Assembly (NCBI GenBank): GCA_964609155.1
Contig: CAZSRF010000002.1
Coordinates: forward strand, 352-64,351
Direction of reading: 5' to 3'
From: an uncultured Gammaproteobacteria bacterium
Lineage (GTDB): Bacteria; Pseudomonadota; Gammaproteobacteria; JAGOUU01
DNA: 64,000 nt
The notes below the pieces were generated by a model. The model worked only from the letters and a program-made list of their open reading frames with translations. It did no database searches and was not told where the DNA came from. Below are positions 50,211 to 50,879 of the stretch, one piece after another (position 1 is the stretch's first letter; each line of letters opens with the position of its first letter). The position numbers and the translations under genes are program-made.

Positions 50211-50879
50211 ATGTCAAAAAGTATTGAAATTTGCGTGGGTGGTTTGTGGAGAGTGAGTCTTGCTATTGATGACGGGGATACTATGGTAGCTTTCAAACAA
50301 AAGATAGAGGACCTGACTGGGGTACCTAGTTATAGGCAAGTACTTACTGATGGAGAGAGCGAGCTAGCGACAGAGGAGGCATTTATTGCTTTTGTTAATG
50401 CAGCTCCTGACGGATATGATGGTGTTATGTTAACTTGGCCTATAATGAGATGGCGTCCTATACATGCGGCTGCTAGTAATGGAAATACAAAGGCTGTAAC
50501 TTTCTGGGTAGCTTCTGGTGCTGATGTGAATGAACCTGCTGACGGCAACCCTGGAATGACACCTTTGATGGCTGCAGCGTCTGAGTTGCGAACAGAGATG
50601 GTATGTACACTTCTTAGGTTAGGGGCAGATGCATCTCTAGTAACTCGACGAGGCGACTATACCGCATTGCATTTCCTCGCTAATCCTACTTGTACGGATC
50701 CTGTTCGTTTAGGTAACACTGGAGATGTAGTGAGATTGCTTGTTGCAGCAGGAGCGAGTTTGGTAGCAAGAGATGAGAGAGGAAGAACTCCTCTGGATAT
50801 AGCTAGAGAGGTGGCGCGAGTGGAGGGTGCAACTGTAGTTGAAGCTTTTGAGCCTGAGCTGCCTCTTCCACGGCCGTAA
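50211..50879 (+). CDS. ubiquitin-like domain + ankyrin-repeat protein (eukaryote-like)
   Basis: Start at MSKS with a GGGGG SD 8 nt upstream. The ORF track starts at 50199. The N-terminal about 70 aa resemble a ubiquitin fold (MVAFKQKIEDLTGVPSYRQVLTDGESEL). Then 3-4 ankyrin repeats (PIHAAASNGNTKAVTFWVASGADVN; TPLMAAASELRTEMVCTLLRLGAD; TALHFLAN...). GC is clearly higher than in the flanks. Confidence 0.7.
   Translation: MSKSIEICVGGLWRVSLAIDDGDTMVAFKQKIEDLTGVPSYRQVLTDGESELATEEAFIAFVNAAPDGYDGVMLTWPIMRWRPIHAAASNGNTKAVTFWVASGADVNEPADGNPGMTPLMAAASELRTEMVCTLLRLGADASLVTRRGDYTALHFLANPTCTDPVRLGNTGDVVRLLVAAGASLVARDERGRTPLDIAREVARVEGATVVEAFEPELPLPRP

Follow-up and report, generated by a model that had tools for sequence, protein, structure and literature searches.

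We found that the gene at positions 50211-50879 of a 64-kb window of a gammaproteobacterial chromosome (the window being the whole 64,000-nucleotide stretch of DNA analysed) encodes a two-domain protein, in which a non-conjugatable ubiquitin-like (UBL) beta-grasp domain is joined directly to an ankyrin (ANK) module of four repeats. The gene belongs to an unnamed, undescribed UBL-ANK family marked by an invariant VGGLW(R) loop, here called the VGGLWR family, and its horizontal acquisition from a eukaryote/giant-virus pool is well supported. The identity and foreign origin of the UBL-ANK gene are held with high confidence. As the best explanation overall, we propose that the horizontally acquired gene encodes a mimic or decoy that is delivered into a host, a reading that we consider moderately probable.

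Architecture of the UBL-ANK protein

The gene and its parts are as follows.

50211-50879, forward strand: UBL-ANK coding sequence, ATG at 50211 and stop ending at 50879, 222 amino acids plus stop, from the list of open reading frames (ORFs) and the sequence
50211-50444, forward strand: ubiquitin-like beta-grasp domain, residues 1-78, from hhalign, AlphaFold (AF2), Foldseek and the Pfam matches of the family
50451-50858, forward strand: four ankyrin repeats, residues about 81-216, the third with an inserted loop and the fourth a C-terminal cap
50201-50205, forward strand: Shine-Dalgarno-like GGGGG, 5 nt ahead of the ATG, by sequence reading
50916-50936, forward strand: terminator-like hairpin 3' of the stop, with an 8-bp stem (5 G-C pairs), a 5-nt loop and a weakly T-rich tail

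The ATG at 50211, unlike the TTG at 50199, reproduces the N-terminal length of the homologues, and full-length homologues can be aligned to the window protein from start through end. The sole near-identical entry among 5.8 billion proteins was P0001 (NCBI source), which is the window protein itself.

The ankyrin assignment is beyond doubt. Pfam Ank_2 matched the window protein with an E value of 3.4e-19 and 69.6 bits (cutoff 27.3), and the profiles Ank (51.1 bits, cutoff 21.1), Ank_4 (53.1, cutoff 22.7), Ank_5 (44.1, cutoff 27) and Ank_3 (35.5, cutoff 22.3) were also above their cutoffs. Sequence matches in the PDB were to ankyrins and DARPins, down to E = 6e-41. The full-length AlphaFold model, with a predicted local distance difference test score (pLDDT) of 78 and a predicted template modelling score (pTM) of 0.79, revealed helix pairs at residues 83-101, 118-136, 152-179 and 194-216, and the pLDDT was 82-98 over most of this region.

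Profile comparison and structure prediction indicate that the N-terminal domain is a divergent ubiquitin-like beta-grasp. PF00240 stayed below its cutoff of 25.4 bits for the full-length protein (E = 0.03, 14.5 bits) and for the N-domain alone (E = 0.0067, 16.6 bits). Across the family, 46 of 55 N-domains matched PF00240 at E <= 0.1 (sub-threshold), 31 matched OTU1_UBXL and 24 matched Ubiquitin_2, with the bacterial homologue P0373 above the Ubiquitin_2 cutoff (23.7 vs 23.1 bits). Comparison of the family N-domain profile with a hand-typed alignment of ubiquitin, NEDD8, Rub1, SUMO1, ISG15, parkin, hHR23A, ubiquilin, Dsk2, UBL5 and elongin B by the program hhalign yielded a probability of 96%, an E value of 4.5e-9 and a score of 47.1, the alignment covering ubiquitin residues 13-73. 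The best of 100 column shuffles scored 16.3 and the reversed profile 13.2. The AF2 model of residues 1-89 (pLDDT 82.7) has the order b-b-a-b-(b)-a-b, with strands at 2-9, 13-20, 44-46 and 69-75 and a helix at 25-36. A Foldseek search of the PDB with this model gave 338 matches at E <= 1e-3, and all 50 listed matches were ubiquitin, ubiquitin variants, NEDD8 or ISG15. The template modelling (TM) score was 0.66-0.86 when normalised to single-domain targets (0.7-0.86 for ubiquitin, which headed the list) and 0.41-0.58 for multi-domain targets, and the UBL shares 15-25% identity with the listed fold matches.

The family-invariant VGGLW motif is placed in the beta1-beta2 loop of the UBL, and a 12-residue insertion exclusive to the window protein is modelled as a helix at residues 55-64. 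Long multi-repeat proteins were also matched by the family profile through the UBL segment. The UBL passes straight into the first ankyrin repeat (...GVMLTWPIMRWRPIHAAAS) and has no C-terminal Gly-Gly. Therefore, it is an integral UBL, not a modifier. The original prediction had read the N-terminal ~70 residues as ubiquitin-like and placed three to four ankyrin repeats behind them; the former is borne out by the profile-profile comparison and the predicted structure, and the latter by the Pfam profiles, the PDB matches and the four helix pairs of the model.

Composition, family and horizontal transfer

The UBL-ANK ORF has a GC content of 0.471 against 0.326 for the window, making it the maximum among all 681-bp windows (z = 4.1) and the highest among the 44 ORFs (z = 4.5), and the strong deviation that had been estimated by eye is thus confirmed. 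The excess sits mainly in an Ala/Gly/Arg/Pro-rich protein sequence, while third codon positions are nearly host-like. GC at first codon positions (GC1) is 0.605 against a mean of 0.429 in the other ORFs, and at second positions (GC2) 0.498 against 0.331. GC at third positions (GC3) is 0.309 against 0.232 +/- 0.029, a small excess over the value of 0.25 expected from the amino acids of the protein and the synonymous usage of the host (P = 0.023). The fraction of Gly+Ala+Arg+Pro (GARP) is 0.347, compared with 0.186 in the window proteome and 0.354 in a GC-rich homologue, and that of Phe+Tyr+Met+Ile+Asn+Lys (FYMINK) is 0.158, compared with 0.343 and 0.102, respectively; the protein has the top GARP and the bottom FYMINK of all window ORFs. 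An excess at the first two codon positions combined with near-host GC3 points to an older, largely ameliorated transfer and not to a fresh foreign nucleotide signature. The proposal that the GC content betrays horizontal acquisition therefore holds for the acquisition itself, but not for the deviation as a mere nucleotide signature. Among the codons singled out earlier, GCN and GGN are indeed abundant (29 Ala, 18 Gly) and GAG accounts for 12 of the 15 Glu codons (80%, vs 29% in the host). The weight given to CTG was overstated, with 3 of 21 Leu codons. TTA supplies 3 of 21, vs 50% in the host, and with GAG it exemplifies synonymous usage that is still foreign.

The main diversity of the family lies outside bacteria, judging from the inferred hosts of the contigs. 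The best full-length relative, P0002, aligns to 94% of the query with 33% identity and keeps the VGGLWRT N-terminus. It sits on AT-rich metagenomic contigs (GC 0.33-0.36) amid 4-5 tandem paralogs, some of them broken, and the array adjoins both ribonucleotide reductase subunits, of which the small one is 52-59% identical to contigs of giant-virus metagenome-assembled genomes (MAGs) in IMG/VR. Within the viral paralog array (L001, 9324-10422), the UBL and ANK parts of some copies form two ORFs. Such copies resemble pseudogenes or frameshifted genes and point to a fast turnover of paralogs by birth and death.

A profile search with the N-domain revealed more than 100 ORFs, about 100 of them on short GC-rich contigs (58-69% GC). 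The GC-rich ankyrin ORFs P0003-P0048 had surfaced in the first search, and the GC-rich branch, a large and hypervariable multi-copy set, also includes P0147-P0253. In L085-L087, the three GC-rich contigs that were read for such an interruption, the N-domain ORF is followed by ~125 nt with GC...AG ends and then by the ankyrin ORF, and an 8-nt direct repeat flanks the interruption. As the UBL and ANK ORFs stand apart, this is a split gene, as expected for a eukaryote. A reverse transcriptase lies next to the UBL-ANK gene on L085, and several GC-rich copies start with MGxxxS, which resembles a myristoylation motif. Within the GC-rich set, sequence entropy is highest at the canonical target-binding positions of the ankyrin repeats and in the alpha1-beta3 loop of the UBL. 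The variable ankyrin positions (repeat turn, start of the first helix) are those randomised in designed ankyrin libraries, and the scaffold is nearly invariant. From the alignment, such a pattern would be the signature of diversifying selection in the GC-rich branch.

Two further copies occupy AT-rich virus-like contigs. The gene at L095 483-1163 has a GC content of 0.60 and a GC3 of 0.59 among neighbours of 0.26-0.31 GC, one of which encodes a C48/I7-like protease, and the gene at L094 168-812 (GC 0.49, GC3 0.43) lies beside RNase H and methyltransferase genes. Both look like recent, un-ameliorated captures of the family. In bacteria, P0373 is encoded on a 45.8-kb contig with parC/parE, xseA, dapB, sbmA and degP, and P0362 adjoins nhaB, a TetR gene and a FadL-type porin gene. 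Their genes have GC contents of 0.47-0.48 and GC3 of 0.34-0.36, against about 0.25 in the neighbours, and each context was recovered from several sequencing runs. The two paralogous UBL-ANK genes of other bacteria are located at L088 8001-8672 and L091 3854-4516, on contigs that are likewise AT-rich (0.355 GC). L088 further carries the gene of a eukaryote-type NIF/CTD-like phosphatase (4510-5901), and the DegP of this bacterium is 43% identical to the window DegP.

No relative of the UBL-ANK protein was found in 185,579 species-representative genomes, none in IMG/VR with the family alignment, and none in 80 giant-virus loci retrieved through the ribonucleotide reductase gene. A scan of metagenome contigs with the same alignment returned 6 short contigs. 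The fold search of BFVD matched the ANK part only. Among its 50 listed matches, no viral protein shares both domains or spans the UBL; most cover 133-170 columns, and the few longer ones have a root-mean-square deviation of 7-11 Å.

The gene deviates toward GC-rich in each of the three AT-rich bacterial contexts. Fully AT-adapted viral paralogs have a GARP of 0.15-0.22, whereas the bacterial copies keep the make-up of the GC-rich branch. The window protein is 42-43% identical to the GC-rich branch and 32-36% to the AT-rich viral branch, the two branches being 40-43% identical to each other. Ordered by context, the GC3 of the family falls from 0.78-0.84 through 0.59, 0.43, 0.34-0.36 and 0.31 (window) to 0.26-0.28. 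We read this series as the result of several captures from a GC-rich source, with later amelioration; the window copy would be an old one. The earlier view of the gene as eukaryote-like and horizontally acquired is upheld, as the relatives occur mainly in eukaryote-like GC-rich and giant-virus-like contigs and the corresponding slot of related bacteria lacks the gene. Composition, distribution and synteny suggest that an AT-rich, Legionella-like gammaproteobacterium gained one UBL-ANK copy horizontally, and that this copy settled in a variable slot upstream of rlmD-relA. Its synonymous sites would then have drifted almost to the host composition, while the protein kept the Ala/Gly/Arg/Pro-rich make-up of the donor lineage. 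Transfer via a giant virus, instead of directly from a eukaryote, is possible.

Several observations weigh against this history. The neighbour-joining tree is star-like and gives a bootstrap of 28-29% to the monophyly of the three bacterial copies, so that it settles neither the donor nor the number of transfers, nor whether the bacterial copies have a single origin. The eukaryotic and viral labels of the metagenomic contigs rest on gene content and the intron-like interruption, not on taxonomy. At the borders of the UBL-ANK gene, no convincing flanking direct or inverted repeats were found, and the window contains no tRNA, nor any integrase marking the borders of the slot. In addition, RelA is <=49% identical to any locus retrieved by pattern from the GTDB species-representative collection.

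Genomic setting

The gene lies in the following region.

45089-51046, no strand: lineage-variable slot between the barA/ABC-substrate-binding genes and rlmD-relA, from Pfam and synteny

The window is ordinary gammaproteobacterial chromosome, with prpBCD, ppsA, dnaQ, lepA-rnc-era-recO, adk and mnmA. The frame consisting of barA (reverse strand), the gene of an ABC-binding protein (reverse strand), the slot, rlmD and relA is common to Berkiella, Coxiellaceae and Francisellaceae MAGs, and in Yersinia rlmD immediately adjoins barA. The window slot contains a 685-aa ORF, a 609-aa ORF, the gene of a YhhN protein and the UBL-ANK gene. Four related loci (L006, L038, L047 and L009) have the same frame with other slot genes, namely transporters and, in L047, an ankyrin protein. 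This 367-aa protein of a Francisellaceae MAG (L047, CAYSTH010000030.1, 6350-7453) is encoded directly upstream of rlmD-relA. Its orthology with the window protein was rejected, as the similarity is generic to ankyrin repeats and it has no UBL. The slot seems to collect ankyrin genes independently. The 685-aa (45351-47408, forward strand) and 609-aa (48320-50149, forward strand) ORFs have no Pfam match and no counterpart in the slots of relatives, and the latter appears hydrophobic by eye; both are candidate lineage-specific effectors or membrane proteins.

Other genes of the window have host-interaction character. A eukaryote-type GDA1/CD39 NTPDase is encoded at 18618-19934 (reverse strand; Pfam E = 9e-45). 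Its family, which occurs typically in eukaryotes, also has members in Legionella, and the gene is likely another imported host-interaction gene. A ProA-like zinc metalloprotease (39145-41055, forward strand) has the Legionella ProA model as its best NCBIfam match, below cutoff. A Sel1 protein with six repeats (55241-56425, forward strand) and a TPR-methyltransferase fusion (56504-57925, reverse strand) are also encoded. The protease, the Sel1 protein and the fusion suggest a Legionella-like, host-associated organism. The nearest insertion sequence (IS) element, an IS607/TnpB element, is 38 kb from the UBL-ANK gene; it consists of the gene of an IS607-family serine transposase followed by a TnpB RNA-guided nuclease gene (10004-11801, forward strand), both apparently intact.

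Export, function and comparison with known systems

Two further features bear on export.

50841-50876, forward strand: C-terminal tail EAFEPELPLPRP, three Glu followed by a Pro-rich end, a candidate secretion or host-motif region
50134-50166, forward strand: weak candidate promoter, TTAAT-N6-TTAAT, 10 nt, TACAAT, in the layout of the Legionella pneumophila PmrA element

The bacterial-context copies end in ELPLPRP, DLPPSPRPRLYP and LPEGPRPRCP. The PRP motif is absent from the 14 other aligned copies, though the high-GC P0317 runs on into a Pro-containing extension. Tails of the PRP type are compatible with an added secretion or host-motif tail. The C-terminal Dot/Icm signal has been described as a hydrophobic residue or Pro at -3/-4, a Glu-rich block and many tiny or polar residues (PMC2701608), features that alone sort 60% of ORFs correctly (PMC2701608). 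The window protein has Leu at -4, Pro at -3 and Glu at -7, -9 and -12. Inspection of the C-terminus for this signal thus gave a divided result, with agreement at -3/-4, where the rule is lax, and in the Glu positions, and a low content of tiny and polar residues.

The candidate promoter scored 11.4 bits with the PmrA position-specific scoring matrix (PSSM), ranking 6 of 127,936 positions, and a -10 box stands at the right spacing; the matrix was taken from Table S5 of PMC2701608 and was built on L. pneumophila, a distant organism. The exact PmrA core motif occurs 4 times in the window vs 2.9 expected. The PmrA box was rejected as positive evidence and kept as a lead only, as the core motif and the full matrix are both at chance level across the window. 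Separately, a 13.9-bit match to the L. pneumophila PmrA matrix (20054-20086) lies about 95 nt upstream of the second most GC-rich ORF of the window (20180-20860, forward strand, GC 0.407), whose product is hydrophobic in the N-terminal half, Pro-rich at the C-terminus and matches no family.

We infer that the UBL-ANK protein is a binder working in a eukaryotic cell, with the ankyrin groove as the main interface and the UBL perhaps contributing to it or serving for docking. The protein would be delivered into a protist host, where the groove, possibly with the adjoining UBL face, would bind a host protein, and it may then mimic or decoy the UBL-ANK adaptors of the host itself or of its virus. 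The role of a secreted host-targeting adaptor is plausible. For such an organism, the type IVB (Dot/Icm) route would be a natural guess. Taken separately, a host-directed role stands at about an even chance, and dependence on Dot/Icm is possible but rather doubtful.

The delivery of the protein and its use of ubiquitin pathways are opposed by the following points. Tiny or polar residues fill only 5 of the last 14 positions, a low share compared to the published descriptions of the Dot/Icm signal (PMC2701608). A random 64-kb window would yield about 4 PmrA sites of equal or better score. Among the 44 ORFs of the window there is no dot/icm or other secretion-system gene, and no signal peptide is apparent by eye in the UBL-ANK protein. 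In the hhalign register, which is a sequence alignment only, Thr46 stands opposite Ile44 of ubiquitin, and the equivalent residue is Thr, Glu or Lys in most family members, making classical ubiquitin-receptor binding doubtful; the UBL is probably not a ligand of such receptors, as far as the sequences can tell. Of the functions proposed originally, manipulation of host ubiquitin pathways is unsupported, given a UBL with Thr aligned to Ile44 and no C-terminal Gly-Gly. The assignment as a Dot/Icm effector found support in no test, with no dot/icm gene in the window, a weak C-terminal signal and a PmrA site at chance level.

The same export results bear on an explanation in which the gene was acquired horizontally but its product stays inside the bacterium, as an adaptor or domesticated for a bacterial function. 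The missing signal peptide, the lack of secretion genes in view and the weak C-terminal features agree with it, as do the normal Shine-Dalgarno sequence and the terminator-like hairpin, which resemble those of a housekeeping gene. In contrast, both domains belong typically to the protein networks of eukaryotes, all known non-bacterial relatives reside in eukaryote-like or giant-virus-like DNA, the three bacterial copies lie in unrelated neighbourhoods and share no conserved partner gene, and the window holds other genes of host-interaction type. We regard retention inside the bacterium as unlikely. It is distinctly improbable that the gene is a functionless passenger decaying after a chance transfer. 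A single copy for which P0001, the protein itself, is the only close match, the longest branch of the family tree and a UBL insertion unique to the protein would fit decay, but the ORF is intact over the full length of the family, the AF2 models are confident, and the family-invariant residues (VGGLW, Q43, L45, W76, and the TPL and GA motifs) are kept. The fall of GC3 from roughly 0.6-0.8, as seen in source-like copies, to 0.31 with no stop or frameshift implies long retention under purifying selection.

Transfer in the reverse direction, from intracellular bacteria in which the family arose to giant viruses and a eukaryote, is very improbable. The bacterial copies do sit on deep, unresolved neighbour-joining branches between the GC-rich and AT-rich clades, but the gene is foreign toward GC-rich in all three AT-rich bacteria, by amino acids and by residual GC3, the diversity of the family is overwhelmingly non-bacterial, and the GC-rich copies that were read are broken by an intron-like stretch. 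An assembly chimera or contaminant, as the strongest GC deviation of the window might hint, is scarcely credible given a nearly host-like GC3 and partly adapted codon usage, unbroken conserved synteny of bacterial genes on both flanks, and paralogous copies with the same arrangement and GC signature in independent bacterial contigs from several sequencing runs.

With acquisition followed by delivery into a host as the preferred reading, the protein can be set beside known systems. Intracellular bacteria are known to make common use of eukaryote-like ankyrin proteins. Legionella has bipartite ankyrin effectors, namely AnkB (F-box and ANK) and RomA and LegAS4 (SET and ANK), which are thought to be horizontally acquired and whose second domain couples to a host pathway (PMC7542358). 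Similar to these, the window protein is eukaryote-like, of small to medium size, has ankyrin repeats for target binding plus a second eukaryotic domain, and would belong to the amoeba-associated gammaproteobacteria. In place of the F-box or SET domain it has an integral UBL, and sequence similarity is limited to generic ankyrin repeats. The term 'ubiquitin-like' is absent from the Legionella review PMC7542358 and occurs thrice, never as an effector domain, in an atlas of 368 L. pneumophila effectors (PMC11696984). A literature search, with most subscription-journal papers outside its reach, gave no described UBL-ANK bacterial effector. The L. pneumophila ankyrin protein Lpg2416 has its sole homologue in mimivirus, which was read as exchange in a protist 'melting pot' (PMC7542358). 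Similar to Lpg2416, the window gene would be an ankyrin gene common to an intracellular bacterium and giant viruses, but the VGGLWR family is a different one, with a large, apparently eukaryotic branch and a graded amelioration series, and no member was found among the named viral proteins of BFVD, where the matches concern the ANK part only.

Other proteins resemble one of the domains. The N-terminal UBLs of Rad23/hHR23A, Dsk2/ubiquilin and parkin are likewise uncleaved and unconjugated, and serve for docking; the window UBL differs in the Thr at the Ile44 equivalent, in the invariant GGLW of the beta1-beta2 loop and in having ANK as partner, not UBA or RING. BfUbb of Bacteroides fragilis is also a bacterial ubiquitin fold of presumed eukaryotic origin (8hm2, rank 37 of the fold matches), but it is a stand-alone, close homologue of ubiquitin, whereas the window UBL is highly divergent and fused to ankyrin repeats. 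The ANK families of giant viruses and poxviruses (mimivirus L93 and others) are similarly expanded into rapidly evolving paralogs and gave the best viral structural matches for the ANK part. Poxviral ANK/F-box proteins link their targets to the ubiquitin machinery; the window protein, unlike the poxviral ANK proteins, has no F-box or PRANC domain. Human ANKUB1 presumably combines ankyrin repeats with a ubiquitin-like domain, as its name implies, and is a lead only.

A wider and speculative reading, which we consider a long shot, would make the VGGLWR family a set of mobile hypervariable binders, native to a GC-rich protist and captured repeatedly by its giant viruses and by AT-rich intracellular gammaproteobacteria. 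The bacterial copies, the only ones with Pro-rich C-terminal tails, would be injected decoys or mimics that disturb the recognition or regulatory system served by the host family, in a three-way arms race over a single scaffold. The family would then parallel in nature the designed ankyrin libraries, with a variable UBL face in addition.

What is new in the UBL-ANK protein, a eukaryote-like ankyrin protein whose family has not been described, is the partner domain, and this fusion is not among the Legionella-type mimics described in PMC7542358 and PMC11696984. If translocated, it would offer a small tool with two domains for probing a host pathway which itself evolves under diversifying selection, and a test case for the addition of secretion signals to imported genes. 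If it is not translocated, the gene remains a clear and datable case of transfer across domains of life, received by an AT-rich lineage of which little is known. More than in this single gene, the main interest lies in the three-way distribution and the amelioration series of the family, in which one gene is caught at several stages, from a GC3 of about 0.8 down to 0.26, so that the exchange of genes between a protist and its giant viruses and bacteria can be read with unusual clarity.

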